Shown here one piece after another: positions 6,697 through 64,000 of a stretch of 64,000 nt of DNA. The stretch's first letter is position 1; each line of letters begins with the position of its first letter. Source of the stretch: Candidatus Omnitrophota bacterium (GTDB lineage: Bacteria > Omnitrophota > Omnitrophia > Omnitrophales > Aquincolibacteriaceae). The stretch is from positions 231,430 through 295,429 of the forward strand of contig CAIOAT010000013.1 of the NCBI GenBank assembly GCA_903856085.1, in the 5' to 3' direction. A program made the translations under genes and the position numbers. The notes below the pieces were generated by a model that saw only the letters and a list, made by a program, of their open reading frames with translations, searched no databases and was not told the DNA's origin.

Positions 6697-7431
6697 ATGA
6701 CAAACGCCCCTTACACGCAGTGCCCGATCCTCTTCGAAGACACGGACCTTCTTGTGATCAACAAGCCCGAAGGGGTTCTCTCCCATCCTAATCCCGGGAC
6801 TAAAAGTCCTGCTTCCGCTTTCGAAGGTCCTTATGATCTGGCTGAACGACGATTTCAAACGCCTCAAGGACCGATCTGGCTCATCCATCGCCTGGATCAA
6901 GACACCTCCGGAGTACTTCTGGCCGCAAAAAACAAGAAGAGTGTCGCGGCCTGTAGGAACGCTTTCGAGAACAGGCAAGTGAAGAAAAACTACATCGCCC
7001 TTGTTTCAAGACGGCCGATGCCACCCCACGGAATATGGCGCGACACGCTCATGGAAAACCGGTCCTCCGGCGGCATCCGTTCTGCCATCAATTATGCGGG
7101 AAAACCTAATGCTTTTTTAAATTACAAAATGAAAGAATATTTCCAGAAATTCAATCTGTCGCTTTTGGAGATCGAACTCTTGACCGGAAAAACGCATCAG
7201 ATCCGCGTGCAGTCGACCTATCGCGGCCACCCCGTCGCTGGTGACAGGATCTACGGAAATTTTACTCTCAATAAAGAGTTGCGGGCAGCTCTTGATCTGC
7301 ACAGGATGTTCCTACACGCCTGGCGGTTGGTCCTTCCACATCCCACGAGCGGAAAACTGCTCACCCTCGAATCCCCGCTCCCGGAAGACCTGGAAGATTG
7401 TCTGCTCAGAGTCTCTCCGCCGAAGCGATGA
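6697..7431 (+). CDS. RluA-family pseudouridine synthase
   Basis: HRLDQDTSGVLL catalytic-Asp motif and a TGKTHQIRVQ motif. Start taken at the ATG (MTNAPYTQ). The ORF track begins at an upstream TTG inside the hairpin. The stop overlaps the next gene by ATGA. Confidence 0.7.
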   Translation: MTNAPYTQCPILFEDTDLLVINKPEGVLSHPNPGTKSPASAFEGPYDLAERRFQTPQGPIWLIHRLDQDTSGVLLAAKNKKSVAACRNAFENRQVKKNYIALVSRRPMPPHGIWRDTLMENRSSGGIRSAINYAGKPNAFLNYKMKEYFQKFNLSLLEIELLTGKTHQIRVQSTYRGHPVAGDRIYGNFTLNKELRAALDLHRMFLHAWRLVLPHPTSGKLLTLESPLPEDLEDCLLRVSPPKR

Positions 7432-9065
7432 AGGTCCTGCTTTTACAACCTCCCGTGCAGGATTTCTACAATACCGATATTCGCCTCCAGCCGATCGGCC
7501 TGGCGTATCTGAAAGCCGCCGCCAGAAAATTTCTCCCCGAGGTGAGCGTCACGATCAAGGACTATCATCACGGCTGGGGCCGGCGAACGATCCCTCTCCC
7601 GCGAGAGCTCACCTATCTAAAAGATTATTATTCCAAAGACGACAAAAGTCCGTTTTCAACATTTCATCATTATTATCATTTTGGCGCAGATTTTGACATG
7701 ATCGCTGAAGAGGTCGCGAAAGAAAAACCCGACCTCGTTGGCATCGCCTCTCTTTTCGCGCCATATCACCGCGAGGTTCTGCACTGCGCCGAGGCGATTA
7801 AAAAACGCTTTCCTGTTCCCATCCTGCTCGGAGGCTCTCAGGTATCCGCGATGCCAGAAGCGATGCTCGTACATCCCGCGATCGATTTTGTGATCCAAGG
7901 CGAGGGCGAGCGGCCGTTTGTAGAACTTTTAAAGATTTTGAAAAGCGGCAAGAATTTCAAGAAAGTTTCCAATTTGGGGTATAAGAAAAATGGGCGGGTA
8001 GTCTTCAACCCCCGGAAAGGGAATTTCCCGATCGGAACACTTCCTTTCCCTGATCTTTCCGACCTTCCTCAAGGTCATTATCTTTTCGAAAAAAAACCTC
8101 TGTGCTTTATCATCACTTCCCGTGGCTGTCCTTACCGCTGCACCTTTTGCTCGGTCCATAAGACATTCGGCTATCAATGTCGGCGCCGTTCCGCAGAAAA
8201 CATTCTTTCTGAGATCAAGCAGCGTTACCAAGAGGGCTATCGCGTCTTTGACTTTGAGGATGATAACCTTACGTTTGATCGGAAAGAAATGACGGACCTT
8301 TGCGGAAAACTCATTCGGACGTTCCCCCCAAAAGACATCCAACTCCTCGCCATGAACGGGGTCTGCTACTGGACGCTGGATAGCACTATCCTCAAGCTCA
8401 TGCGCCGAGCGGGATTTACGCATCTGAATCTTTCTCTCGTCAGCACGAACACATCATTGCTCAAAACCGTCCACCGGCCCAACCCGCTTAGAAAATACCG
8501 CGACGTCGTAGAGAAAGCGGTAGCCATCGGCTTTAAGGTCGTCGCATATCAAATCCTCGGGCTTCCGGGTGACACGCTCCCTTCAATGATCAAGACACTT
8601 CTCTTTAACGCCAAACTCCCGGTGCTTTTGGGAGCTTCTCCTTTTTATCTTATTCCCCACTCGCCGATCGCCCGACATTTCGATGAACCCTCTGAAACAG
8701 ATGTCTTCAGGGCGCGCCTCACGGCTATGGCCATTGAAACCAAAAACTTCCAGCGCGGAGATCTTTACACACTCCTCATCACGACCCGAATCCTGAACTT
8801 TTTGAAAGGAATCCCTACGAGAACCTCAAAAACTACCCTTTCCAGGGCCCTGGAGATCGCCGAAAAACAGGGTCCTCGCTTAACTGTTGGCGTGGAAATC
8901 TTGCAAAGACTGTTGAAAGAAAAGAAGTTTTACGCCTCGACTGCGAAAGGCCTTGAACCGCTCCCCCGCTTCAAATCCGAACTATTCTTCCAATTGTGGC
9001 AAAAACTTGATAACATCAAAACCCAGGCAAATAAAACTATTGAACTTGGGGGAGACCGTCGATGA
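7428..9065 (+). CDS. B12-binding-domain radical SAM enzyme (class B rSAM), substrate unknown
   Basis: An N-terminal cobalamin-binding-like domain (MKVLLLQPP...) is followed by the radical-SAM CPYRCTFCS (CxxxCxxC) cluster. It has ATGA overlaps with both the upstream and the downstream gene. Confidence 0.7.
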   Translation: MKVLLLQPPVQDFYNTDIRLQPIGLAYLKAAARKFLPEVSVTIKDYHHGWGRRTIPLPRELTYLKDYYSKDDKSPFSTFHHYYHFGADFDMIAEEVAKEKPDLVGIASLFAPYHREVLHCAEAIKKRFPVPILLGGSQVSAMPEAMLVHPAIDFVIQGEGERPFVELLKILKSGKNFKKVSNLGYKKNGRVVFNPRKGNFPIGTLPFPDLSDLPQGHYLFEKKPLCFIITSRGCPYRCTFCSVHKTFGYQCRRRSAENILSEIKQRYQEGYRVFDFEDDNLTFDRKEMTDLCGKLIRTFPPKDIQLLAMNGVCYWTLDSTILKLMRRAGFTHLNLSLVSTNTSLLKTVHRPNPLRKYRDVVEKAVAIGFKVVAYQILGLPGDTLPSMIKTLLFNAKLPVLLGASPFYLIPHSPIARHFDEPSETDVFRARLTAMAIETKNFQRGDLYTLLITTRILNFLKGIPTRTSKTTLSRALEIAEKQGPRLTVGVEILQRLLKEKKFYASTAKGLEPLPRFKSELFFQLWQKLDNIKTQANKTIELGGDRR

Positions 9066-34117: not shown

Positions 34118-35890
34118 CTATCGGTCCTCCCTGCAGACCCGATTCCGGCCGTTGTCCTTAGCCCGGTAAAGCGCGGCATCGGCCCTCCGAACCATCGGGT
34201 CGGGAATATTCTCTCCGGGATGGAGCGCGGCCACTCCAAAACTGGCCGTGACAGAGATCGGTTTGCCTTCCCATTCACAGGTCAAAGCTGCGATCTTTTC
34301 CCGGAGACGCTCCGCCACATCCTCCGCGGCCTCTTTCAAATCCGCCCTCCGGAGCATAATAATGAATTCCTCGCCTCCGTAGCGAGCCGCAAAATCGATC
34401 TGGGAGAATGACCGCTTCCTGCGGATATGCGCCTCAAGGGTTTGGGCCACTTTCTTGAGCACCATATCTCCGGCCGGATGACCGTAGGTGTCGTTAATCT
34501 TTTTAAAGTGATCGATATCCAGCAAAATGACCGAAAGGGGTTGTTTCCCATTTTTTGATTCCATCACAATCTGGTTCATGATTAACCGAAAATGTCGGAT
34601 CACATAAAGGTCGGTCAAGCCGTCGCGCGTAGCAAGATGAAAGAGGCGGGATCTTTCGCGCGTCGCGGTAATCTGGACATAGATTGCCGAAAAAATAAAA
34701 AGGCAGAGCATGAGCAAGACGGGATAGACCACGTAGAACCCAAGATGCCATTTCGCAAAAGCCACAAAACAAAACGCGAGCCATCCCAAAGCAAGTAAAA
34801 GTCCCGCCACAAGCGACCCTGCCCCGGGGAGCAGGACAAAGAGGACCAGGGTCAAGCCACCGATTCCAAGAAGACAGAGCATATTCCCCAAAAACGGAAC
34901 CGGGCGCACCCAGTTTCCGGTCAGAGCAGCGTTCAGCACCTGCGCGTAGACACCGATCTTCGGATACGTAAGGCTGAAAGGCGTGATCTTGAGTTCCGAC
35001 GTCCCCGACGCTGTGGGCCCCACCAGGCATATCTTCCCGGCAATCTTTCCCGGATCCATGACTGGCCGCATCCCTTTCTGGATCGCATAAAAACTATGAA
35101 TCAAGTCCGCATAATTGTAACGCACAAAACCACGGTCCCAGACCTCGCTCCAAGGAATCAGGACTTTCCCCCGGTGATCCTCAAAGCTCCCCCATTCCTC
35201 GGCCAGCGGGATGGGTTTTTTCATTTGGTCGAACGCCACGCGCAGCGGCAGAAAAAGGCGCCTTTCTTTTCCTTCCGCGATAAAAGGATCGAACCGTCTC
35301 AGAACGCCATCCGAATCCGACGTAAGAAAGCTGTGCCCCGTCGCCCGCACCTGTTTTTCGAACTCCGGCATCGCGTGAGACCAGTACACTTTCCCTCCGC
35401 CTTGATCCAAAACCACGGGCATCCCATGCAACCAAAATTTTTTCTCTTTTTGCTGTTTCAGATCCACGGGCAAGTAAAAAGAAGTTCCCGTTTTGGAAAG
35501 CGCTTGGGCCAGGTCTGCATCGTCCTTCGGATCGGTCGGTTCTGAGAGATCAAGATCGAACACGATCGCTGCCGCCTTCCATTCGCTCAAAAGGCGTGCT
35601 GTAATCGCGTGATAACTTCGCGGCCACGGCCAAGGACCGATCTCGTCCAAAGATGTTTCCGATATTTCAATGAGAACAATGTCCGGGTGAGCTTTGCCCC
35701 AGGCGGCATGTTTTAGAAAACCGTCGCGGACCAAATCCTCAAATCGATCGAGCCGATGAGTCCCCAAAAGAAAAGCAAATACCCCAATAATGAGAAAATA
35801 AGTTCCGAGCCGGACCCAACCTTGATAATCCCGAGAGCGAATACGGGTGAAAAGTTTTTCGGTCGCTTCAATGGGTTCGTGGGGAGTCAT
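34118..35890 (-). CDS. Membrane sensor diguanylate cyclase (CHASE2-like N-terminal region plus GGDEF)
   Basis: An extracytoplasmic region flanked by TM segments, then a GGDEF domain with RYGGEEF. Confidence 0.75.
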   Translation of the reverse strand: MTPHEPIEATEKLFTRIRSRDYQGWVRLGTYFLIIGVFAFLLGTHRLDRFEDLVRDGFLKHAAWGKAHPDIVLIEISETSLDEIGPWPWPRSYHAITARLLSEWKAAAIVFDLDLSEPTDPKDDADLAQALSKTGTSFYLPVDLKQQKEKKFWLHGMPVVLDQGGGKVYWSHAMPEFEKQVRATGHSFLTSDSDGVLRRFDPFIAEGKERRLFLPLRVAFDQMKKPIPLAEEWGSFEDHRGKVLIPWSEVWDRGFVRYNYADLIHSFYAIQKGMRPVMDPGKIAGKICLVGPTASGTSELKITPFSLTYPKIGVYAQVLNAALTGNWVRPVPFLGNMLCLLGIGGLTLVLFVLLPGAGSLVAGLLLALGWLAFCFVAFAKWHLGFYVVYPVLLMLCLFIFSAIYVQITATRERSRLFHLATRDGLTDLYVIRHFRLIMNQIVMESKNGKQPLSVILLDIDHFKKINDTYGHPAGDMVLKKVAQTLEAHIRRKRSFSQIDFAARYGGEEFIIMLRRADLKEAAEDVAERLREKIAALTCEWEGKPISVTASFGVAALHPGENIPDPMVRRADAALYRAKDNGRNRVCREDR

Positions 35891-55207: not shown

Positions 55208-57043
55208 TTACACCCGTAATCTCTGGCTTGTCCACAAATTGAAGAACAGGCCTTTCTTATAGATCAACTCCCGCAGAGTGCCCGACTCAAGGATTCTACC
55301 TTGATCAAGATAGACGATTTTATCGGCTCTTCTGATTGTAGAAAGCCTGTGGGCAATAAGGATCAGCGTTTTCTCACCTCGCGTCTGCAAAATAAAGTTG
55401 TGGACCCAGGCTTCCGTCCCAGAATCAAGAGCGCTCGTGGCTTCATCCATGATCAAGATCTCCGGGTCCTTGATAAGCGCCCGTGCGATCGAAAGCCTTT
55501 GCCGCTCACCCCCCGAAAGACGGGCACCCCTTTCGCCGACAAGGGTCTCATATTTCTGCGGCATCTTTTTGACAAAATCATGGATGCGAACCCTGATGCC
55601 AAGGTACCTTAAACGTTCCTCATGAACATCCGAAGAGGCACCATAAACAATGTTGTTACGGATCGTATCGTTAAAGAGAATCACTTCCTGACTCACGAAC
55701 GCCATACGCTGTCGCAGCGAAGCGACGTCATACCCCCGGATGTCATGACCATCCACTAAAATCGTCCCGGGAGAACAATCATAAAATCTTAAAAGCAAGT
55801 TCACGAGCGTACTTTTGCCCGAACCCGAAGGTCCCACAATGGCAACAATCGATTTTTTTTCTACGGAAAAATTGAGTTTTTCCAGAACCCAAGGTTCCTT
55901 TTCTCCGTATCGAAAAGAAAGGTCCTTGAACTGTATCACTTTCTTGAGGCCTGTGAATTTCTGTGAGCCACTCACCACCAGAGTGGTCCCTTCATAGTGA
56001 AGGACTTGCTCGATATCGCGCAATGCAGAAGCGGCGCCCGCAGACCCCATTTTAAACTTACCGAACGCGGCGAACCCCGGAACAACCCGCATCGCCAGAT
56101 AAAAGAAAACAAAGGCTTGCGACGCGTCCAGAGTGTGGTCGATCCGCATCACGAGCGCCAATCCAAAAGCAACACATAGGATCCCGGTCATCGCTCCCAG
56201 ATCCTCGACCGGCTCCGCGAGGCTGCTCAACCGTTGCGTTTTAAATGCTTGCGCGATCTCTTGTTCACTTGCACGCGAAAATTTTTCTATCTCTTCCTGC
56301 TCCTTGGCAAAACTTCGTATGACCGGCATGCAGTAAAGCATATTGAAGATCTTTTCATGAAGATTCTTGGCCACACGATCGTGCTCCAGCCAGGCGGCAC
56401 GAATCCTCAGGATGATCCCATGCGTCACAAATTGCGTCAGGGGAACCGCGATGATCGCAACACAAGTCAGCTTCCAGGAGGTTTTGAGCATGAGACTGAG
56501 ATAGACGACGAGCAATAAGAATTGCGAGAGGAACCCCTGAAAGAGATCGAACTGGGATTCGATCATGCCGGTCGCTTTCGTAAGAACAGTGTGCAAAAAC
56601 GCGGTCGTGTTCTTATCGTAAAAACTTTTGCTGTAACCCAGACATTTCTTGACCAGCAATTGGCGAACATTTGCCGTGGCAAGTCGCGCCTGGGTCTGGC
56701 TGCACAAAGAGGCTAAATAAAGACAGGCGTTTTTAAGAATGACAATAATATAGAACCAGAATGCGGCAAGCGCGAAAAGCTTATTGGAGGTATTAAAAAA
56801 ATTTGGAAAGCGCCTGACGAAAAAATGAACGCCTGCCATATCCACCATATGGCTGAAATCCCCTTGGATGATCCCGTGTGTCAGAGGAAACAACAAGTTG
56901 ACGGAGTAGAGGGCCGAAAGACTGAAGCAGACAGAGAGAACGACAGACAATGCCAGAAACCACATATTAACCTGGCTCATTTTCAAAAAAGCAAAAAGTT
57001 TTTTTGCGTTTGAGAAGATATCGTTTCTTTTCTCAGAACTCAT
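55208..57043 (-). CDS. ABC exporter, fused permease/ATPase (MsbA-like)
   Basis: A six-TM domain plus an NBD with GPSGSGKST, LSGGERQRLSIARAL and ILIMDEATSALD. Confidence 0.85.
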   Translation of the reverse strand: MSSEKRNDIFSNAKKLFAFLKMSQVNMWFLALSVVLSVCFSLSALYSVNLLFPLTHGIIQGDFSHMVDMAGVHFFVRRFPNFFNTSNKLFALAAFWFYIIVILKNACLYLASLCSQTQARLATANVRQLLVKKCLGYSKSFYDKNTTAFLHTVLTKATGMIESQFDLFQGFLSQFLLLVVYLSLMLKTSWKLTCVAIIAVPLTQFVTHGIILRIRAAWLEHDRVAKNLHEKIFNMLYCMPVIRSFAKEQEEIEKFSRASEQEIAQAFKTQRLSSLAEPVEDLGAMTGILCVAFGLALVMRIDHTLDASQAFVFFYLAMRVVPGFAAFGKFKMGSAGAASALRDIEQVLHYEGTTLVVSGSQKFTGLKKVIQFKDLSFRYGEKEPWVLEKLNFSVEKKSIVAIVGPSGSGKSTLVNLLLRFYDCSPGTILVDGHDIRGYDVASLRQRMAFVSQEVILFNDTIRNNIVYGASSDVHEERLRYLGIRVRIHDFVKKMPQKYETLVGERGARLSGGERQRLSIARALIKDPEILIMDEATSALDSGTEAWVHNFILQTRGEKTLILIAHRLSTIRRADKIVYLDQGRILESGTLRELIYKKGLFFNLWTSQRLRV

Positions 57044-57218: not shown

Positions 57219-58067
57219 CTAAGCCTGCCCCCAAGACTCTGGGAGCTTAGAAAATCTAGCGCTTAACGCATCGTAAGTATCTTTTAGCTTCGCTTTGAGT
57301 TTTTTATCAATTTCATTCGAAAAATCAAAATCGTGCGTCACATTAACTTTGCGTTCTAATCGCTCTTCAGGAAGTGCCACTGCGGCAACTTCAAGAAAAT
57401 CGGTGATCTGATTGATGGCCTTTTGTTTGTTCCGCATAAGATCTTCGTAGAAAAGAAACAATAAATCCTCCGGCCTGAAATGCTCTTGCAGCTTTTGGAC
57501 GGTAACATGATATGAAGACTTTTCGATAATCATATCGGAATACGCTAGTTCAACAAGCTCTTCTCTCGTAACATCACGAATATCCGTATTTTGCATTTCA
57601 AAGAAATAACGCATCGCTGACTTAGCCCGATCGACCGGATCTCTCATTATAAAAAGTATTTTTTTATTTTGGCACACTCTTTTTATATTTTCAAATCCCG
57701 CGTCAGGCAGGAGGGCATATTCCGGTGAAAAATCAGCCGCATATTTCTTCCCACTATGAGAAAACAACTTTATATACCACTGATCATTGACAGGTGATAA
57801 TAACTCGTGGATGACTTTATTAACAGGCTTGCCAGACGATACATTTGAAAAATAGCGTTCTAATGCCGAACGCTTTTCTTTCAGGATCCGTTCCAGTTCA
57901 TTTACTTTTCTTCTCGTCAGCAGAATGCTGTCGCAATACAACGTGTTGAAATAATGGACCTCTTTCACGCCTGAAAAACCGATTTCCGGATGATCTTTTA
58001 ACTGCGCGTACAACCAGGTGGTACCTGCCTTTTGTGCACCCACACATAAAAATAAATTTTTTATCAT
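57219..58067 (-). CDS. PAPS-dependent sulfotransferase family protein
   Basis: 5'-PSB motif GAQKAGTTWL. Start at MIKNLF. Confidence 0.65.
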   Translation of the reverse strand: MIKNLFLCVGAQKAGTTWLYAQLKDHPEIGFSGVKEVHYFNTLYCDSILLTRRKVNELERILKEKRSALERYFSNVSSGKPVNKVIHELLSPVNDQWYIKLFSHSGKKYAADFSPEYALLPDAGFENIKRVCQNKKILFIMRDPVDRAKSAMRYFFEMQNTDIRDVTREELVELAYSDMIIEKSSYHVTVQKLQEHFRPEDLLFLFYEDLMRNKQKAINQITDFLEVAAVALPEERLERKVNVTHDFDFSNEIDKKLKAKLKDTYDALSARFSKLPESWGQA

Positions 58068-58264
58068 AATGCGCTTTTCCATCCCCTGAATAATTAACAA
58101 AAATAGCCCGCCTGTTTTCCGTACTCAAGCGCGCTCAGAGCGTCAAACGTTCCATGAAGCTTTCTGTGATTCTAATTCATTTCTACGCGTTCGAGGATCA
58201 TTCTTTTCTTTCGGCCATCCGTAAAATCTTGTGACTGTCTCGGTCGGCAGAACATCCCCACGTC

Positions 58265-59146
58265 TTAATACTTTAGGGTGCTCCCCAAAAGATCTTCCAC
58301 CTCTTTAAGTTGGTCCGTAAACAGGCCATCAAGCCGTGCCATAGCCTCAGGTCCTGGGGAATACTCCACCTCCGAGGCATTGAACATTGTCTTAAAGGCG
58401 GGTTTGAGATGTTTCTCATCAAAAGCAAGGTCAAGAAACCGCGATAAATTTTCAAGCATCCCGGAAGGATTGTCAATAATGTCGTCATACGGCAAAAGCA
58501 GGACATTGCTGAAACATTTACTATATTTCTCAAAAGCTAATTTATAATTGCCGAATTCTCTCTGCGTTCTTATCCACAAGCGATTTCCAGTCAATAAGGA
58601 CAGAAAGAATCGTTCTCTCTCCTCAGGCAAAACTTCGTCCTCACCACCACCGAGCCGTAAACGAAAAGCAGAGATCGTTCGTTTTATCGGATTGCGGCAC
58701 ATCAATACTATGCGAGCATCACCTACGAGCTCCCTCATCCGAGAAATCTGTGCATCTTGGAGCAACATGTATTCGGGCGTGGACTCTCCCAAAAACTTTA
58801 CGCCCTCATCCTCTCCGAGGCCGGAGAAGAGATCGAGATAATTGATTTTTTCAATCGGCGTTGTAAAAAAATGAAAATGTGTCTTAAGATGACATTGCCA
58901 ATCAGGATTGATAAAACCAAACTCCTTGGTCTGGCAAAGCTTATCAATCTCTAGGGCTAAAGACTTTTTTGAAAACACCCTTAACTTCTCTTCCGGTCTA
59001 ATCCCATAAAGCGTATCGAAATAATGGAGCTCCTTAACCGGGTGCATTTTGATCTGCGGATGCAGTCCGAGCAATCGCCATAAAAATGACGAGCCTGCGC
59101 GTTGAGAACCCACACCGATAATAAATTTTTTTTCCATAATGTTCAT
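58265..59146 (-). CDS. PAPS-dependent sulfotransferase family protein; paralog of the previous gene
   Basis: GSQRAGSSFLW 5'-PSB-like motif. Same length and layout as its neighbour. Confidence 0.6.
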   Translation of the reverse strand: MNIMEKKFIIGVGSQRAGSSFLWRLLGLHPQIKMHPVKELHYFDTLYGIRPEEKLRVFSKKSLALEIDKLCQTKEFGFINPDWQCHLKTHFHFFTTPIEKINYLDLFSGLGEDEGVKFLGESTPEYMLLQDAQISRMRELVGDARIVLMCRNPIKRTISAFRLRLGGGEDEVLPEERERFFLSLLTGNRLWIRTQREFGNYKLAFEKYSKCFSNVLLLPYDDIIDNPSGMLENLSRFLDLAFDEKHLKPAFKTMFNASEVEYSPGPEAMARLDGLFTDQLKEVEDLLGSTLKY

Positions 59147-59319
59147 TTCGAAATATTAGAGAATACCCCTTCTGATCATTTTATAATTCCCTGAGCAATC
59201 CACTCCGGGGTTGACAAGCCCTGAAACGCCGGAGTTATTATACTGCTCCCCATTTCGTTAAAGTTCAAACAGTTAAAACTTGAAATAGATGAAATCATAA
59301 GAATCAACGCCTGCAAATA

Positions 59320-60717
59320 TCATAAGTAGCAAGCCTGCGACAGCATAAAAGAAAACCCGTAAACCTCATCTAGATCCCAAGACTTCCGCCTTTGCCACCC
59401 TTGCCAAAGCATCGAAACAAGCAGCGGTATCGAATAAAACAGAAATACGCAAAGCAGAACCAGCACGACATCCCCATCAGCATAAGACTTCGCAAAGAGC
59501 GGCCGGCCACCATGCCATGGAATCTCCACCTTGACCTGGTCCCATAAAAATCCAAGAGATGGCGTACGAACCAATAGAAATCCGATATTGACCAGAAAAT
59601 AGGTTATGAGAATCGAAAATGCGCGTGTAAGGAAATTCTCTTTCCACACACGATCGAGAGCTGGCTTAAATATCAGCTGATACAAAATAATAATAGCGGC
59701 ATAATAAAGACCCCAGATAAGATATTTCCACTCCGCACCATGCCAGAGCCCGATAAAGCCCCATGAAATGATGATCGCGACAACATATCCGAGAAAAGGA
59801 CGCTTCTTGGTCAGACGAACCACCAAGGGCATGTAAATATAGTCTTTCATCCACTGCGTGAGAGAAATGTGCCATCGGTTCCAGAAATCCGAAGGATTCC
59901 TTGCGAGAAAAGGTCTGTCAAAATTCTTCATCAATTCAAGTCCCAACAATTTAGCGGATCCCCGGGCCAGGTCTGTGTACGCTGAAAAATCAGCAAACAA
60001 TTGGCTGCCAAAGCCAAAGCCTCCCAGGAGAAGAAGCCCAGCCGAAGGATTCTTAAGGGCGAATATCATGTTCACATAGAGCCCAAGGTTGTTTGCCACC
60101 ACAAGTTTTTTCACGAGACCCCAGACGATCAAGTCAATCCCCTGCATGAATTGGCTCTTGCTAAAAACACGATCTCGCGCGATCTGGCCAAGGAGTGCTT
60201 TGGGCTTCTCGATAGGCCCGGCGAGAAGCTTCGGGAAAAAAGCAATAAACAGAGCCAACTCGGGAAAGGAATCGACGGGATCTATAACACCCCTGTAAAT
60301 ATCAATGACATAACTCAATAACTGGAAGGTATAAAAAGAAATACCCAGAGGTAAGATGATCTCAAGATGCAAATTCGTCGCGTCCACATTCCAAAAGCCA
60401 AGAAGTCCGGCCAGAGAATCAATAAAAAAATTATAATATTTGAAAAAACAAAGCATCCCGATGCTCAAAAACACGGCCCCGAAAAAGAATGCTTTGCGCT
60501 CGAACGCGCTTGGGGCCCGCTTGATACGCTGGCCGGAAAAAAATACCACGACCGTCGCACCCATGATCAGCCCCAAAAACCGCCAATCCCAGCTTGCGTA
60601 AAACACATAACTGGCCGTAAGGAGCAGCATATTCTGCCACCGACGCGATAGCCTCCAGTAAAGAAGTACAACAGCTACAAGAAAAATAAAATATCCCCAA
60701 GACGGAAAAATAATCAT
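59320..60717 (-). CDS. MBOAT-family membrane O-acyltransferase (DltB/AlgI-like)
   Basis: Polytopic, with the conserved FWNRWHISL histidine motif. ATGA overlap with the upstream ligase gene. Confidence 0.8.
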   Translation of the reverse strand: MIIFPSWGYFIFLVAVVLLYWRLSRRWQNMLLLTASYVFYASWDWRFLGLIMGATVVVFFSGQRIKRAPSAFERKAFFFGAVFLSIGMLCFFKYYNFFIDSLAGLLGFWNVDATNLHLEIILPLGISFYTFQLLSYVIDIYRGVIDPVDSFPELALFIAFFPKLLAGPIEKPKALLGQIARDRVFSKSQFMQGIDLIVWGLVKKLVVANNLGLYVNMIFALKNPSAGLLLLGGFGFGSQLFADFSAYTDLARGSAKLLGLELMKNFDRPFLARNPSDFWNRWHISLTQWMKDYIYMPLVVRLTKKRPFLGYVVAIIISWGFIGLWHGAEWKYLIWGLYYAAIIILYQLIFKPALDRVWKENFLTRAFSILITYFLVNIGFLLVRTPSLGFLWDQVKVEIPWHGGRPLFAKSYADGDVVLVLLCVFLFYSIPLLVSMLWQGWQRRKSWDLDEVYGFSFMLSQACYL

Positions 60718-62966
60718 GCCTGAACGCCTCCTTTTGGATCATCGCCCTTCTCGGATGCGCTCCCGAGAAACCAGGGCTTCTCTGAAATACCGGACTTTAT
60801 GGAATGAATATAAATCGTCGGAAGAGGTGGATTGACCCCTGCATATTCGAGGTCATTATGCGTAAAGAACACCGCCCCTGCGCAATACCGTGCGATGGGT
60901 TCGCGTTCCGCCATCACAATGGCATAATACCTTCGCGCAGCTCTCTGGGAATCCTCCTGAGGCTGCCGTCTCTCCGCCTGTTTGATAAATTGATCCTTGA
61001 GAGAAAACTCCTGCCATAGCCTGTTAAAGGCCGGATCTTCTAACTGTTTAAGGATATCATCAAAAATAAGTCCGGCCTGTGCCCAGATCTCGCTCAAATA
61101 GATATTGTCAAAACCACGCCTCCGGCACTCTTCGGTAATAGCTCTAAAATAACTCCGGGCCGATGCCTCGGGCACGAGATTGCAACGACCGTGGATATCC
61201 GCCAAAATAAGCGTAAGCCTGACCCAAGGCTTGTTGACACATCGGTTCGCTTCATCAACAAGCATACGCAGATGATCCAGCGCGGCCCTATCGTGTTCAT
61301 CCGCAAAATCCCGCTGCCCCACCCCCCAATATCCGACGAGGCAGAACGGAGTATCATCGATCAAAGAGTCCTGAATAGCTTTCAAGATGGCCTCTTTATC
61401 CGGCGTCTTGGCCTTTCTGTAACGGGCTTTGTCGAAGATCGCGAAAAGATCCCGAGCCGTCTGTCCGGAAATATATTCCCTGAGCTTTTTCAGATCGACC
61501 TTACCGAGACTGTTCTTGGGCAAGCACCGGAAGAACACAAATTGATCCGGCATATTTTGCGCAGAGACACTTCCCCGGACAAAATCATACAACTCAGCTT
61601 CGATCTCCGGCGTCCTCTCCTTCAAAACGCACGCCGTGACAACCCGTTCCCCGAGCATGTCATCAGGAATGCCGAAAGTACACGATTCCGCGATATGACC
61701 GTAACGCCCGACAGCAATATCAATATCCTCGGGAATCACAAGCTGTCCTTTACGCTTGATGATATTCTTGATCCGTCCGACGATCACGAGTTGGCCATCT
61801 CTATCTAGAAAACCGATATCACCCGTCTTGAGCCAGCCATCCACAAGCACAGCCTTGGTGGCTTCGGGATTACCCCAATAGCCTTTCATAATGATATCTC
61901 CACGAATCAAAACTTCCCCGCTTCCTTCCGGCAACCCCTCGGCGGAGATCAAACCCGATCGGCCAATACGCACCTCGCAATCGACAGGAATCCCCGCGGA
62001 ATCATAACGCTTTCTCTCATCCCTGGGGGTCATGACGGCCCAAGTCGTCGTCTCTGTAAGCCCATAGCCCTGAAAACAGGGAATATGAAATCGGGCCTCA
62101 AAGGTCTTCCAAAGAGACTCTTTCAGGTGAGCCGTACCGACCAACGCATACTCGATGGAAGAAATATCCTTTGACGCGCCCGCCGGATACATATCGCTCA
62201 AGGAAGCCATGATCGACGGTGTTATGCTCAGAACCTGGATCTTATGTTGCTCGACAATATCCCAGATGCTTCGGGCCACAGAAAACCCGAAGACCTCTGT
62301 AAGAAAAACATGCGCCCCGGCACTAATGCACGCAAGCCCTGTGACCATCGGCGCGTTGATATGGTAGAAGGGAAGCATCGAAAGAAACTTCTGGCCTTGT
62401 TGAAAACCATAGAAAGACGAAAAAGCCTTTGCCATTACAGTGAGATTTTTATGAGAGAGCGCGATCCCCTTGCTGTTGGCTGTTGTCCCAGATGTATAAA
62501 TAATAAGGACTGCCTTCCCGTCTCCCTCCTCGCCGGCCAAAGGACCACTGTCGTAAGACCCGTCTTCTGCACCGGCCAGGCAAAGCATATCCTGGCTGTT
62601 GACCTGGATCTTCTCGGAATTCTCAAAGCTCTCCGCCAAGGGTAGCCACTCCTCGTCAAAAAAAATAACCCCGGGAGACAGTTGTTTTACAATATGCTGT
62701 AATTCATCAGTATGCATTTTGGGATTCAAGGGAATCAGGGCGGCCCGTCGTGAGGCACAAGCAAATATCAAAGGAAAGAAAAACGCCGAGTTAACCGTCA
62801 GATAAACGATCTTGTCCCCAGGGGCGATCATCCTCTTTTCAAGCAGTCGGGCAAGGCTCAGGCTCGCTTTGCGCAGATCCTCATAACTATAACTTTTATG
62901 ACTTCTCAAATCCGTCAAGAACATCTGCCGGCCGTCCAGATGATCCAATAAAGAAGAGAGGTTCAT
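60714..62966 (-). CDS. Adenylate-forming enzyme (DltA/acyl-AMP ligase-like, ~510 aa) fused to a ~240-aa C-terminal domain of unknown function
   Basis: YTSGTTANSKG, GYGLTET and GWLKTGD AMP-binding motifs. The C-terminal region (DTPFCLVGYWGVGQ...LADIHG...FFTHNDLEY) matches nothing I recognise. Confidence 0.7.
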   Translation of the reverse strand: MNLSSLLDHLDGRQMFLTDLRSHKSYSYEDLRKASLSLARLLEKRMIAPGDKIVYLTVNSAFFFPLIFACASRRAALIPLNPKMHTDELQHIVKQLSPGVIFFDEEWLPLAESFENSEKIQVNSQDMLCLAGAEDGSYDSGPLAGEEGDGKAVLIIYTSGTTANSKGIALSHKNLTVMAKAFSSFYGFQQGQKFLSMLPFYHINAPMVTGLACISAGAHVFLTEVFGFSVARSIWDIVEQHKIQVLSITPSIMASLSDMYPAGASKDISSIEYALVGTAHLKESLWKTFEARFHIPCFQGYGLTETTTWAVMTPRDERKRYDSAGIPVDCEVRIGRSGLISAEGLPEGSGEVLIRGDIIMKGYWGNPEATKAVLVDGWLKTGDIGFLDRDGQLVIVGRIKNIIKRKGQLVIPEDIDIAVGRYGHIAESCTFGIPDDMLGERVVTACVLKERTPEIEAELYDFVRGSVSAQNMPDQFVFFRCLPKNSLGKVDLKKLREYISGQTARDLFAIFDKARYRKAKTPDKEAILKAIQDSLIDDTPFCLVGYWGVGQRDFADEHDRAALDHLRMLVDEANRCVNKPWVRLTLILADIHGRCNLVPEASARSYFRAITEECRRRGFDNIYLSEIWAQAGLIFDDILKQLEDPAFNRLWQEFSLKDQFIKQAERRQPQEDSQRAARRYYAIVMAEREPIARYCAGAVFFTHNDLEYAGVNPPLPTIYIHSIKSGISEKPWFLGSASEKGDDPKGGVQA

Positions 62967-63223
62967 GTCACGGGCCTCTTCGAGATCACGAACTGTTCGA
63001 TCTTTTCCAATGAACTAATCCTGTCATTGGCGAGATCCGCCACAGCGACCGTCACCGCGAATTCCTTCTCTAAAATCGCGATCACCTTGATGAGATCAAA
63101 TGAATCAAAGAGGTTCTTTTTGATAAAATCCTCGGTCTCCAGAAGCTTGCCGATCAAATGCGCCTTACTCCCGAAATTTTGCACCAAGAGCTCGCGAACC
63201 TTCTCTCTTATAGCCTTTTCCAC
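62963..63223 (-). CDS. Acyl/aminoacyl carrier protein (DltC-like)
   Basis: 86 aa. Phosphopantetheine-attachment context NLFDSFDLIKVIAILE. ATGA overlap with the ligase gene. Confidence 0.6.
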   Translation of the reverse strand: MEKAIREKVRELLVQNFGSKAHLIGKLLETEDFIKKNLFDSFDLIKVIAILEKEFAVTVAVADLANDRISSLEKIEQFVISKRPVT

Positions 63224-63393
63224 ACCACCACCTCATTTATCCTTTGGACCGCCTTACACCTGGCCCTCGAAGCCGTCCGAATATTTTCGTCCTTGATATG
63301 CGGGTCGCATCATCTTCTAAAAACCGTGCGCCTCTTTTCCCGTTTTATTCCATCTGTTATTTCGTCTTTGATTCGCTCTGGGTCACGAACTAA

Positions 63394-64000
63394 TCACTTC
63401 ACAATGCCTTGAGCAACCAACTCCCGGGCTAACAACTCCTGCACTATTGCAGGATGGTTCATATGCTTCCAGTCCAAAAAAAGATCCGGGCTATTTAAAT
63501 CCTTACGATCCCATAAAGAAATATATTTGATCCCATTATTCGCAAGGTAATCTTCCAATTTCGCATAATATTGTTTTTTCTGATCGTACGAAAACCCTTC
63601 CTCGACCTGAGGATAGGTAGGAAGCACGACGACAAAAAGATCGATGTTGTATTTATGTTTTAAAGCCACGATCCACGGAAGAAGCGATTCCTTCATCTCC
63701 TTGTCAAAATCATAGCTTTGAACTTGGCGGCTTTTAGGAAGAGAGTCTGCATCATTTCTAAATTTTCCAAGGCGAAACTTCTTATTCAAGACATCTTCCA
63801 CATTTGCTCCGGGGGCGATTTTTCCAAATATTCCTGTTACAAAATGATGCAAAAGGTCTTTAGCCATATCTTCAGCACACCTCGACAGAAAAATATGCTC
63901 CCGCAAAATCTCTCCCACCGAAAGTTTTCTCTTCCCCCCCGGCTCAAAATCAGAGATCCTCTCCCGACTCCCAAGTTGCCCCATATATTTGGCTGCAAGA
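63394..64000 (-). CDS. DltD/AlgJ-like SGNH-fold protein, C-terminal part; the ORF stays open to the window end
   Basis: The C-terminal DLFLDWKHMNHP (DxxH) resembles the DltD catalytic tail. The frame continues past 64000 without a stop. Confidence 0.4.
   Translation of the reverse strand, partial: LAAKYMGQLGSRERISDFEPGGKRKLSVGEILREHIFLSRCAEDMAKDLLHHFVTGIFGKIAPGANVEDVLNKKFRLGKFRNDADSLPKSRQVQSYDFDKEMKESLLPWIVALKHKYNIDLFVVVLPTYPQVEEGFSYDQKKQYYAKLEDYLANNGIKYISLWDRKDLNSPDLFLDWKHMNHPAIVQELLARELVAQGIVK

Follow-up and report, generated by a model that had tools for sequence, protein, structure and literature searches.

The 64,000-nucleotide window analysed here, a stretch of an Omnitrophota contig, ends in a group of minus-strand genes that make up a carrier-protein-dependent acylation module. 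From low to high coordinates, these encode a DltB-like MBOAT (59320..60717; a 465-aa ORF truncated by a frameshift), a 750-aa adenylating ligase (60714-62966), an 86-aa phosphopantetheine carrier protein with a GTG start (62963..63223) and a membrane-anchored protein with DltD-like (SGNH-type) features, whose C-terminal ~200 codons (63394..64000) lie in the window while the gene continues past its end. The complete DltD-like protein has 329 aa (L001:8584-9573), and further upstream of its gene lie a 331-aa paralogue with 54% identity (L001:7092-8087) and a 72-aa fragment. The original prediction had recognised this Dlt-like parts list (carrier, adenylating ligase, MBOAT and SGNH-type partner), but its view of four genes in the order D-C-A-B, all joined by ATGA overlaps, was in part a misreading. 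Four-nucleotide ATGA overlaps couple the MBOAT to the ligase (60714-60717) and the ligase to the carrier (62963-62966), whereas the carrier and the DltD-like ORF are separated by a 170-bp gap with no ATGA overlap.

The genes are co-conserved in related genomes, as had been expected: four other Omnitrophota MAG loci contain carrier, ligase and MBOAT as a set, and in three of these the DltD-like gene comes immediately after the MBOAT gene and overlaps its 3′ end. The flanking genes differ from locus to locus, and the Omnitrophota loci hold no further biosynthetic genes beside the cassette. Downstream of the module, the window encodes two sulfotransferases, an ABC exporter, an AlgX-like SGNH protein, RgpF and glycosyltransferases. 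The glycan-locus setting described earlier thus exists in this window, but it is not conserved between genomes and is therefore weak evidence for the acceptor. We know of no teichoic acids in Omnitrophota, and the view that this is not a teichoic-acid system is supported. Many unrelated metagenomic loci have this ligase fusion next to a carrier gene; outside Omnitrophota, an adjacent MBOAT was found in about 3 of 22 metagenomic ligase-fusion loci. Because most of these fusions have no MBOAT next to them, the ligase is not tied to an MBOAT-type transferase.

The carrier protein and the two-domain ligase

The carrier barely exceeds the cut-off of PF00550 (PP-binding) with 21.4 against 20.8 bits (E=3e-4), and its top NCBIfam matches are ACP and DltC models, every one under its cut-off and the DltC models far so (E=0.003-0.04). 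In the alignment, Asp40-Ser41 is invariant across seven homologues, which bears out the predicted conserved serine in a DS context; the Ser41 codon (63101-63103) lies within an FDSFD motif. The protein counts as a carrier, though not as a demonstrable orthologue of DltC. A crude motif scan of the window found no PPTase gene, for which a search had been suggested.

Residues 1-500 of the ligase (61467..62966) form an ANL adenylating domain of the acyl-CoA-ligase/luciferase type, with Pfam matches to AMP-binding (2e-62) and AMP-binding_C (3e-8). Its top NCBIfam match is NF004837, a long-chain-fatty-acid-CoA ligase (308 bits), and no DltA model is among the best 25 NCBIfam matches listed. Among PDB sequences, the best 60 matches listed are all luciferases or acyl-CoA ligases, headed by luciferase, oxalate-CoA ligase, FadD13, feruloyl-CoA synthetase and 4CL. 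DltA and NRPS A domains carry an FDxS motif, the Asp of which binds the alpha-amino group. In the ligase, the A4 region reads LPFYHINA, with a His at the position of the amine-binding Asp, and LP(F/Y)(Y/H)H(I/M)N is common to the homologous fusion proteins. Judged by this motif, the ANL domain would fit a substrate without a free alpha-amine. A DltA-type D-alanine ligase was rejected on account of these matches and of LPFYHINA in place of FDxS. As regards the comparison with DltA and NRPS codes that had been proposed as a guide to the substrate, the A4 motif is PFYH instead of FDxS, and the sequence matches place the enzyme with fatty-acyl/aryl-CoA ligases and luciferases. Of the two functions originally envisaged, aminoacylation or acylation, the former in the style of DltA is unlikely given the ligase type and the missing Asp, while the latter stands.

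Modules of a ligase and a carrier are also known from Gram-negative envelope and exopolysaccharide loci, namely the exosortase-A-associated cassettes (TIGR03098) and the Bordetella dra locus. The Omnitrophota genes share this composition. However, the proposed comparison with the exosortase-associated cassettes failed at the ligase, which reaches 149.5 bits on TIGR03098 (exosortase-A-associated acyl-CoA ligase), far under the cut-off of 592.35, so that membership was rejected.

The remaining ~250 aa at the C terminus (residues 501-750; 60717..61466) form a distant member of the PvcA/IsnA/Dit1 isonitrile-synthase fold. An additional C-terminal domain had been foreseen correctly and, in the window's own protein, it gives no Pfam, NCBIfam or PDB sequence match; the earlier description of it as lacking any recognisable motif and as no known standard domain nevertheless has to be amended. 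Among 36 relatives, seven match PF05141 (best 6.4e-8) and two match the NCBIfam PvcA model (at 1e-4), while the domain of the window has the PvcA fold and stays below the PF05141 threshold. All family-invariant residues (G48, H92, N96, Y106, Y180, P213 and W232) are found in it. At the sequence level, the alignment to the PvcA family is limited to a block around D-x-H. Compared with PvcA/IsnA/Dit1, the domain is ~60-80 residues shorter, has 11-14% identity (measured against PvcA/PIsnA) and bears signature motifs of its own (GxWGxG, D-x-H-A-x-x-N-G, RYY...E, LPxLPTxY and PWF). It further differs from that family in being found fused to ANL ligases or AsnB-like enzymes, and in that no IsnB/PvcB-type Fe/2OG partner gene is present. 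The same fold is also common to TyrRS and cyclodipeptide synthases.

The MBOAT and its DltD-like partner

The MBOAT matches PF03062 (2e-13), and its top NCBIfam match is the DltB model TIGR04091 (1.9e-52), although its 178.8 bits are well short of the cut-off of 375. His283 and His326 are invariant in five orthologues, as in an MBOAT domain of the PatAB type with its conserved His. Four orthologues share 57-80% identity with the protein; at 483-512 aa, each of them is longer at the C terminus, and the in-frame MBOATs of the four orthologous Omnitrophota loci (L003-L006) end in DFIYF(K/R)F; that of a more distant cassette (L048) ends in AFIYFQF. FxYxxF is an acyl-shuttle motif, experimentally shown for PatA and DltX, and its location on the MBOAT itself is the arrangement of non-Dlt MBOATs (PMC12148441). 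A DltB accompanied by a separate DltX was rejected in view of the TIGR04091 score and of the shuttle motif on the orthologous MBOATs themselves. By its sequence, the MBOAT belongs to the PatA/AlgI kind, in which the Tyr shuttle is part of the MBOAT's own C terminus. Since the DltB-like MBOATs of the four orthologous loci end in the FxYxxF typical of PatA/AlgI, we regard the system as a Dlt/Pat hybrid.

The assignment of the 329-aa protein to the DltD/SGNH type is a weak one that draws on sequence features. Its N-terminal hydrophobic (TM) helix is conserved, Gly56-x-Ser58 (G-S-S) and His307 are invariant among the homologues, and Asp304 of the D-x-x-H motif is present in five of six, with Asn in the other. 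Five of the six homologues match DltD (TIGR04092; best 1.4e-5), all far under the cut-off, and the protein encoded in the window reaches 14 of the required 150 bits. Profile searches found no SGNH protein among PDB sequences, and its AF2 model is of low confidence (pLDDT 42).

A proposed acylation relay and its alternatives

The best explanation for this set of genes includes a cassette that combines Dlt and PatA/PatB (AlgI/AlgJ) features. As in DltABCD/DltX of Firmicutes, an adenylating enzyme would make the acyl donor and a small phosphopantetheinyl carrier would bear it, genes are translationally coupled, and a DltB-like MBOAT is joined by a membrane-anchored partner with DltD-like sequence features. 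In contrast to that system, the ligase lacks the amine-binding Asp and carries the extra PvcA-fold domain, a DltX microprotein is absent here, and the host belongs to the Omnitrophota, with the Dlt equivalog models far under their cut-offs. PatA/PatB, AlgI/AlgJ/AlgX and WssH/WssI have in common with the cassette an MBOAT whose additional C-terminal helices terminate in FxYxxF and a separate extracytoplasmic transferase of the SGNH type, which in the cassette is putative; they modify envelope polymers, as the cassette is proposed to do. These O-acetylation systems use acetyl-CoA as donor and have neither carrier protein nor ligase (PMC12148441). The Omnitrophota donor side is instead Dlt-like and carrier-dependent: the translationally coupled carrier and ligase suggest that the donor is carrier-bound, unlike that of PatA, and the transferred acyl group is probably not acetate.

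We tentatively propose, at slightly less than an even chance, a self-contained trans-membrane acylation cassette that relays an isocyano or N-formyl amino acid via the carrier protein onto an envelope glycan or lipid, in which (i) the PvcA/IsnA-fold domain would act on an amino acid, changing its alpha-amino group to an isonitrile or N-formyl group; (ii) the ANL domain, which like the carrier is clearly identified, would adenylate the putative isocyano/N-formyl acid and thioesterify it onto the Ser41-phosphopantetheine of the carrier; (iii) the MBOAT would unload the carrier and pass the acyl group to the Tyr within its own FxYxxF on the outside of the membrane, a chemistry modelled on PatA and DltX, the motif itself being seen in the orthologues; (iv) the conserved Ser of the DltD-like protein would hand the acyl group to an extracytoplasmic glycan or lipid at one of its hydroxyls. 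The nearby candidate acceptor in this window is a possibly sulfated polysaccharide, the product of the neighbouring genes for glycosyltransferases, sulfotransferases and the ABC exporter. The N-formyl variant of step (i) has a parallel in Dit1, which makes the N-formyl equivalent of the isonitrile. For the overall logic, fungal CrmA may serve as a precedent by analogy: its isocyanide-synthase domain is joined to adenylation, thiolation and transferase domains, and its products are small molecules, O-esters in which valine-isocyanide/N-formylvaline is attached to mannitol or a hexose (PMC9381783). In both systems, an isonitrile-synthase-type domain is found together with adenylation and thiolation (carrier) functions. 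However, CrmA unites all of these in one eukaryotic polypeptide that starts with the isocyanide-synthase domain and includes a cytosolic transferase domain, whereas the Omnitrophota domain is remotely homologous and falls outside PF05141, a separate protein serves as carrier and transfer is proposed to proceed across the membrane by way of the MBOAT and its SGNH-type partner. The fusion of a PvcA-like domain to an activating enzyme hints at an unusual cell-surface decoration.

A simpler acylation or lipidation is possible though doubtful: the ANL domain would take a common fatty, hydroxy or aryl acid as its substrate for carrier-dependent MBOAT/SGNH transfer, and the PvcA-fold domain, rather than forming an isonitrile or formamide, would serve in substrate binding, regulation, docking or other (e.g. 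aaRS/CDPS-like) chemistry. The resemblance of the ANL domain to long-chain fatty-acyl-CoA ligases, FadD13, 4CL and luciferases would suit this, as would the low identity of the C-terminal domain to PvcA/PIsnA, its position under every Pfam/NCBIfam model, the sharing of its fold with TyrRS and cyclodipeptide synthases, and the absence of the Fe/2OG partner gene. We consider it improbable that the PvcA-like ligase and carrier instead make a small isonitrile-type metabolite that the MBOAT and SGNH-type protein esterify or export as a free or lipid-linked product. CrmA does make small molecules, and in other lineages the ligase fusions and stand-alone homologues of the domain lie in secondary-metabolism-like clusters with an acyl-CoA dehydrogenase, B12-radical-SAM enzymes, a carbamoyltransferase and further ANL enzymes; the Omnitrophota cassette, however, has no such adjoining genes, and all characterised bacterial MBOAT/SGNH pairs with FxYxxF named in PMC12148441 acylate extracytoplasmic polymers. 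A true Dlt/dra-type aminoacylation, by which ester-linked D-Ala, or some other free amino acid, would make an envelope polymer less negatively charged, is very unlikely, for although the parts correspond to dltA-D, DltB and DltC models match the MBOAT (as top hit) and the carrier (weakly), and DltD is the sole consistent match of the SGNH-type protein, it conflicts with the non-DltA ligase, its A4 motif, the subthreshold Dlt equivalog scores and a shuttle motif fused to the MBOAT in place of DltX, and it leaves the PvcA-fold domain unexplained.

The frameshifted shuttle tail in this strain

The proposed isocyano/N-formyl relay depends on the MBOAT shuttle, and in this strain the gene, although present and DltB-like as predicted, has a truncated ORF. 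Relative to the orthologues, a 7-nt deletion at about 59355/59356 shifts the tail out of frame, the DNA at this site reading GGGTTGCGGGTTTTC in L004 and GGGTTTTC in the window. FxYxxF is thus a feature of the MBOAT gene family that the ORF of the window has lost. Three-frame translation recovered the tail intact in the -1 frame, on the minus strand at 59273..59365, with the last TM helix and the acyl-shuttle motif (GLRVFFYAVAGLLLMIFAGVDSYDFIYFKF*). Because the last helix and the shuttle Tyr are out of frame, the relay is probably disrupted in this strain or dependent on recoding, and the module may be inactive there. The DNA of L001 and L002 is identical to that of the window at the deletion site, and the index of the collection lists the identical truncated MBOAT for 33 blocks; 18 contigs carrying it were read.

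Gene organisation and conservation of the cassette

The minus-strand genes at the high end of the window most probably form a carrier-dependent MBOAT/SGNH acylation cassette whose ligase bears a PvcA-fold domain. Three complete ORFs encode the MBOAT (59320–60717, 465 aa), the ligase (60714–62966, 750 aa) and the carrier protein (62963–63223, 86 aa), the last starting at a GTG preceded by the Shine–Dalgarno-like sequence GAGGTGG; the DltD-like gene ends at 63394 and runs past the window end. The original prediction had described four genes coupled by ATGA overlaps. Genuine 4-nt ATGA overlaps join the MBOAT to the ligase and the ligase to the carrier, whereas the DltD-like gene is separated from the carrier start by a gap of 170 bp. 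Two independent lake metagenome assemblies (L001 and L002) recover the same contig, with 1 mismatch in 13.3 kb relative to the window, and give the full-length DltD-like protein as 329 aa. Upstream of its gene (L001:8584–9573), just past the high end of the window, lie an intact 331-aa paralogue, 54% identical (7092–8087), and a third copy reduced to 72 aa (6769–6987). Between 59000 and 64000, a promoter and terminator scan gave counts no higher than in shuffled controls, and a crude Sfp/AcpS motif scan of the window for a PPTase found none.

The source organism belongs to Candidatus Omnitrophota, and Omnitrophota MAGs were its sole close relatives in either GTDB genomes or NCBI; the single-protein locus scan found three Omnitrophota loci. 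The proposed module is co-conserved, as four further Omnitrophota loci (L003–L006) keep carrier, ligase (58–82% identical) and MBOAT side by side. Three of these have the order carrier–ligase–MBOAT–DltD-like (C-A-B-D), with a single DltD-like gene overlapping the MBOAT 3' end, and L004 has no DltD-like gene within 10 kb. Relative to that single copy in relatives, the DltD-like gene of the window's genome is relocated to a position upstream of the carrier and duplicated, which suggests a recent rearrangement of the cassette. The flanking genes are unrelated among loci (ATP synthase operon, ammonium transporter and RuvB in L006; efflux pump and pyruvate:ferredoxin oxidoreductase in L004; a secretin in L003), and the cassette is therefore a self-contained module. 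The glycan genes that adjoin the cassette in the window, as originally described, do not form a conserved partner of it.

In the window this glycan locus spans about 49.0–64.0 kb, comprising GT2, GT4, TPR membrane protein, RgpF, AlgX-like SGNH protein, ABC exporter and two sulfotransferase genes, and goes on past the window end with genes for a 1078-aa GT4 protein and a double-GT2 protein. The sulfotransferase genes (57219–59146 and 55208–57043) lie between the MBOAT and the MsbA-like ABC exporter. Their position with RgpF, the AlgX-like SGNH protein and the GT2/GT4 genes suggests that the product may be a sulfated, O-acylated exopolysaccharide. Diguanylate cyclase genes of the CHASE2-GGDEF type lie on both sides of the region, at 34118–35890, some 13 kb lower than the glycan locus, and at the far end of that locus (L001:1–832), so the polysaccharide may be under c-di-GMP control.

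The ligase and its PvcA-like domain

The carrier passes the Pfam PP-binding model marginally (21.4 bits, cut-off 20.8) and scores under the cut-offs of the DltC models. Its Asp40-Ser41 pair (FDSFD) is invariant across seven homologues, two of them distant, which bears out its original identification as a phosphopantetheine carrier. Residues 1–500 of the ligase constitute a complete ANL adenylating enzyme (AMP-binding and AMP-binding_C), in whose translation the A3 P-loop, A5, A7, A8 and the A10 Lys were recognised by eye. The P-loop at 62430–62475 (residues ~165–178) reads TSGTTANSKG instead of the canonical TSGTTGxPKG (Gly to Ala, Pro to Ser), and related fusion ligases also have Ser or Ala in place of this Pro. 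Among the matches listed, long-chain fatty-acyl-CoA ligases, FadD13, oxalate-, feruloyl- and 4-coumarate-CoA ligases and luciferases come closest, and neither DltA nor NRPS A domains appear. In DltA and NRPS enzymes, an Asp at A4 binds the α-amino group of the substrate. The A4 position of the ligase reads LPFYHINA, with His at the site of this Asp, and LP(F/Y)(Y/H)H(I/M)N is common to the homologous fusion proteins. Because His replaces the amine-binding Asp and the nearest families are not DltA or NRPS, DltA-style activation of a free amino acid appears unlikely.

For the extra C-terminal domain of the ligase (residues 501–750, 60717–61466), there is no separate match in Pfam, NCBIfam or the PDB sequences. 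Word-indexed searches, whether with this domain, with the DltD-like protein or with the family alignment, gave only one or two matches each, and the family was revealed by an exhaustive HMMER search, which recovered 345 representative clusters (50% identity) at E ≤ 1e-3. Among the best 150 of these, about one third are C-terminal fusions on ANL ligases of ~750 aa, about half are proteins of at most 300 aa, many of which proved on inspection to be stand-alone proteins of 220–290 aa, and three are proteins of ~1030 aa that carry the domain at the C terminus. In these last (P0071, P0111 and P0144; loci L019, L023, L040, L052, L054 and L057), the N-terminal part appeared by eye asparagine-synthase (AsnB)-like and the middle NMT1/SsuA-like. 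This AsnB-like/NMT1-like fusion is a putative, uncharacterised second architecture of the family. At L007:1276–4763, which also informed this reading of the parts, adjacent unfused genes encode a Pfam NMT1 protein, an extra-domain protein and an Asn_synthase protein, beside ABC-transporter genes.

An alignment of 36 members shows invariant G48, H92, N96, Y106, Y180, P213 and W232 and the motifs GxWGxG, D-x-H-A-x-x-N-G, RYY...E, LPxLPTxY and PWF. Seven of the 36 match Pfam DIT1_PvcA (best 6.4e-8) and two the NCBIfam PvcA model; the family profile matches the isonitrile synthase PIsnA (9DHM/9DH4) at E = 0.005, with the family A-D-x-H aligned with the IsnA S-D-G-H. The family alignment yields a confident AlphaFold2 model (pLDDT 94.4, pTM 0.90), whose top Foldseek matches are PIsnA (1.3e-6) and PvcA (3.9e-5); catalytic domains of TyrRS and cyclodipeptide synthases come next. 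On these profile matches, the predicted structure and the Foldseek ranking, the extra domain is assigned as a remote member of the PvcA/IsnA/Dit1 branch (isonitrile or N-formyl synthases) of the class-I-aaRS-like Rossmann superfamily, and the fold assignment is robust. The original statement that the domain carries no known motif consequently stands where standard domain libraries are concerned, yet fails once folds are compared: the PvcA fold is present, but the window's own sequence misses the Pfam family threshold. With its ~345 clusters at 50% identity, the family forms a large bacterial branch of this fold that has gone unannotated and is repeatedly joined to carboxylate-activating enzymes.

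The MBOAT tail and the DltD-like protein

The MBOAT matches Pfam MBOAT at 2e-13, and its best NCBIfam model is DltB (1.9e-52, 179 bits against a cut-off of 375). Four orthologous MBOATs (483–512 aa) terminate in ...FAG(V/I)(D/N)xxDFIYF(K/R)F, whose end is the FxYxxF acyl-shuttle hexapeptide. PatA auto-acylates the Tyr of FxYxxF, DltX has the same motif as a separate microprotein, and DltB itself has neither the motif nor the two additional helices (PMC12148441).

The window's MBOAT ORF ends early, at DLDEVYGFSFMLSQACYL followed by a stop. Read in the −1 frame of the minus strand (59273–59365), the lost tail, GLRVFFYAVAGLLLMIFAGVDSYDFIYFKF, is still intact and comprises the last TM helix and the FIYFKF shuttle. 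The break is a 7-nt deletion with its junction at ~59355/59356, where L004 reads GGGTTGCGGGTTTTC against GGGTTTTC in the window; the sequence indicates that it arose between short direct repeats. The collection indexes this very 465-aa truncated protein in 33 blocks, and 18 contigs with it were read; the truncation is thus a real population allele and no assembly error. A programmed −1 frameshift was rejected, as neither an X_XXY_YYZ slippery heptamer in the zero frame nor any convincing slippery site was found at the break. Separate translation of the tail as a DltX-like microprotein is unlikely, since the available start codons give only 16–19 aa, too short for a TM helix. The frameshift in the window's copy is probably disabling, with the acyl relay probably interrupted in this strain, and it is probably recent, because the tail is no less conserved than the remaining protein.

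In the DltD-like protein, an N-terminal hydrophobic helix precedes an invariant G-x-S (LLGSSAL), and the His of the C-terminal D-x-x-H is likewise invariant. TIGR04092 (DltD) was the only consistent match, found for five of six homologues (best 1.4e-5) and in all cases far under the cut-off, and the family profile matched no SGNH or DltD sequence in the PDB. Its AlphaFold2 model, from an alignment of only three sequences, has a pLDDT of 42.5. Aligned with the window's AlgX-like protein by hhalign, the DltD-like family gives a weak match (probability 4%) with the DxxH in register.

Proposed reaction sequence and distribution in other lineages

MBOAT–SGNH acylation systems comprise carrier-dependent Dlt with DltX and acyl-CoA-dependent PatA/AlgI with a fused Tyr shuttle, and the non-Dlt systems have no carrier protein (PMC12148441). 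The cassette does not reach the DltA, DltB or DltD equivalog cut-offs; it is not a Dlt system, yet it is Dlt-like in how its donor side works. The gene family, though not the window's ORF, has the MBOAT with C-terminal shuttle that defines the PatA type, from which the Omnitrophota cassette differs in having a carrier and a ligase. Since the orthologous MBOATs bear FxYxxF, the cassette joins a Dlt-type donor side (ligase, carrier, DltB-like MBOAT core) to a PatA-type fused shuttle, which shows the halves to be exchangeable. In the searchable literature, whose coverage is incomplete, we found no description of carrier-dependent MBOATs with a fused shuttle or of bacterial ANL–PvcA-like (isonitrile-synthase) fusions.

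Starting from the observed domain identities, gene coupling, co-conservation, PvcA fold and orthologues' shuttle motif, we infer the function and acceptor of the cassette as a hypothetical multistep scheme in which (i) the PvcA-like domain would turn the α-amine of an amino acid into an isonitrile or N-formyl group; (ii) the fused ANL domain, lacking the amine-binding Asp, would activate the modified acid and load the carrier; (iii) the MBOAT would pass the acyl group onto its own C-terminal Tyr at the outer face of the membrane; and (iv) the DltD-like Ser would hand it on to an envelope glycan or lipid, at a hydroxyl group. For the amine modification and the activation and carrier-loading steps, the nearest precedent is the fungal CrmA, which combines domains for isocyanide synthesis, adenylation, thiolation and transfer and yields valine-isocyanide or N-formylvaline esters of mannitol or a hexose (PMC9381783). 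Taken as a whole, this best explanation has slightly less than an even chance, and the specific isonitrile/N-formyl chemistry is doubtful. Equally tentative is the wider proposal that Omnitrophota and a few other uncultured lineages esterify an extracytoplasmic glycan or lipid with isocyano- or N-formyl-aminoacyl groups, using a bacterial isonitrile-synthase branch not recognised before and fused to an ANL ligase, a Dlt-type carrier donor and a PatA-type MBOAT with a built-in Tyr shuttle.

Among the alternatives, plain acylation, with the PvcA-fold domain in a non-isonitrile role, is a possible if unlikely reading, and a small-molecule pathway is improbable. True Dlt-type aminoacylation, with which the list of parts would agree, is very improbable given that A4 reads LPFYHINA and offers no amine-binding Asp.

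If the proposed isonitrile/N-formyl scheme is true, it would for the first time connect isonitrile-synthase-type chemistry with envelope-polymer acylation, and would give a first functional handle on a ~345-cluster family that is also fused to AsnB-like enzymes. Were such acids made, Omnitrophota envelope polymers would bear a metal-binding, reactive group, which to our knowledge is not known on bacterial surfaces except in the small glycoside rhabduscin. Omnitrophota are, as far as we know, a candidate phylum without well-studied cultured members. The cassette also supplies concrete enzymes testable by biochemistry.

A degenerate-motif scan of metagenome contigs yielded about 42 true extra-domain family loci, about 24 of them ANL fusions, often beside a carrier gene. 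All-against-all BLAST and Pfam counts of the neighbours of ligase fusions revealed no family common to most loci. In L011 and L012, obtained by protein look-up, the ligase fusion has a carrier gene and GDSL-type genes nearby, but no MBOAT. A 299-aa protein beside the L011 ligase was considered LpxL/AlmG-like from an H-x4-E seen by eye, and was rejected as Pfam gave no support. The stand-alone family member P0016 (10001–10705) lies in a large cluster (L008/L009:7027–20705) with a corrinoid protein, a URO-D-type methyltransferase and a RACo activator, two B12-radical-SAM enzymes, PanC, CoaBC, type III pantothenate kinase, Orn/Arg decarboxylase, acyl-CoA dehydrogenase and an ANL ligase; from its gene content, it looks like an unknown metabolite pathway.

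An adjacent MBOAT occurs among the scanned loci only in L031 (Omnitrophota-like), L038 and L048, and the L048 MBOAT terminates in AFIYFQF. In L038 (1682–10946), from another lineage, a GDSL protein, an MBOAT, an 86-aa carrier, an acyl-CoA dehydrogenase, an ANL–PvcA-like ligase and a second GDSL/SGNH protein are encoded together. The MBOAT is DltB-sized (398 aa) and lacks the FxYxxF tail, and the acyl-CoA dehydrogenase, whose gene lies between those of the carrier and the ligase, suggests that the carrier-bound acyl group may be desaturated.
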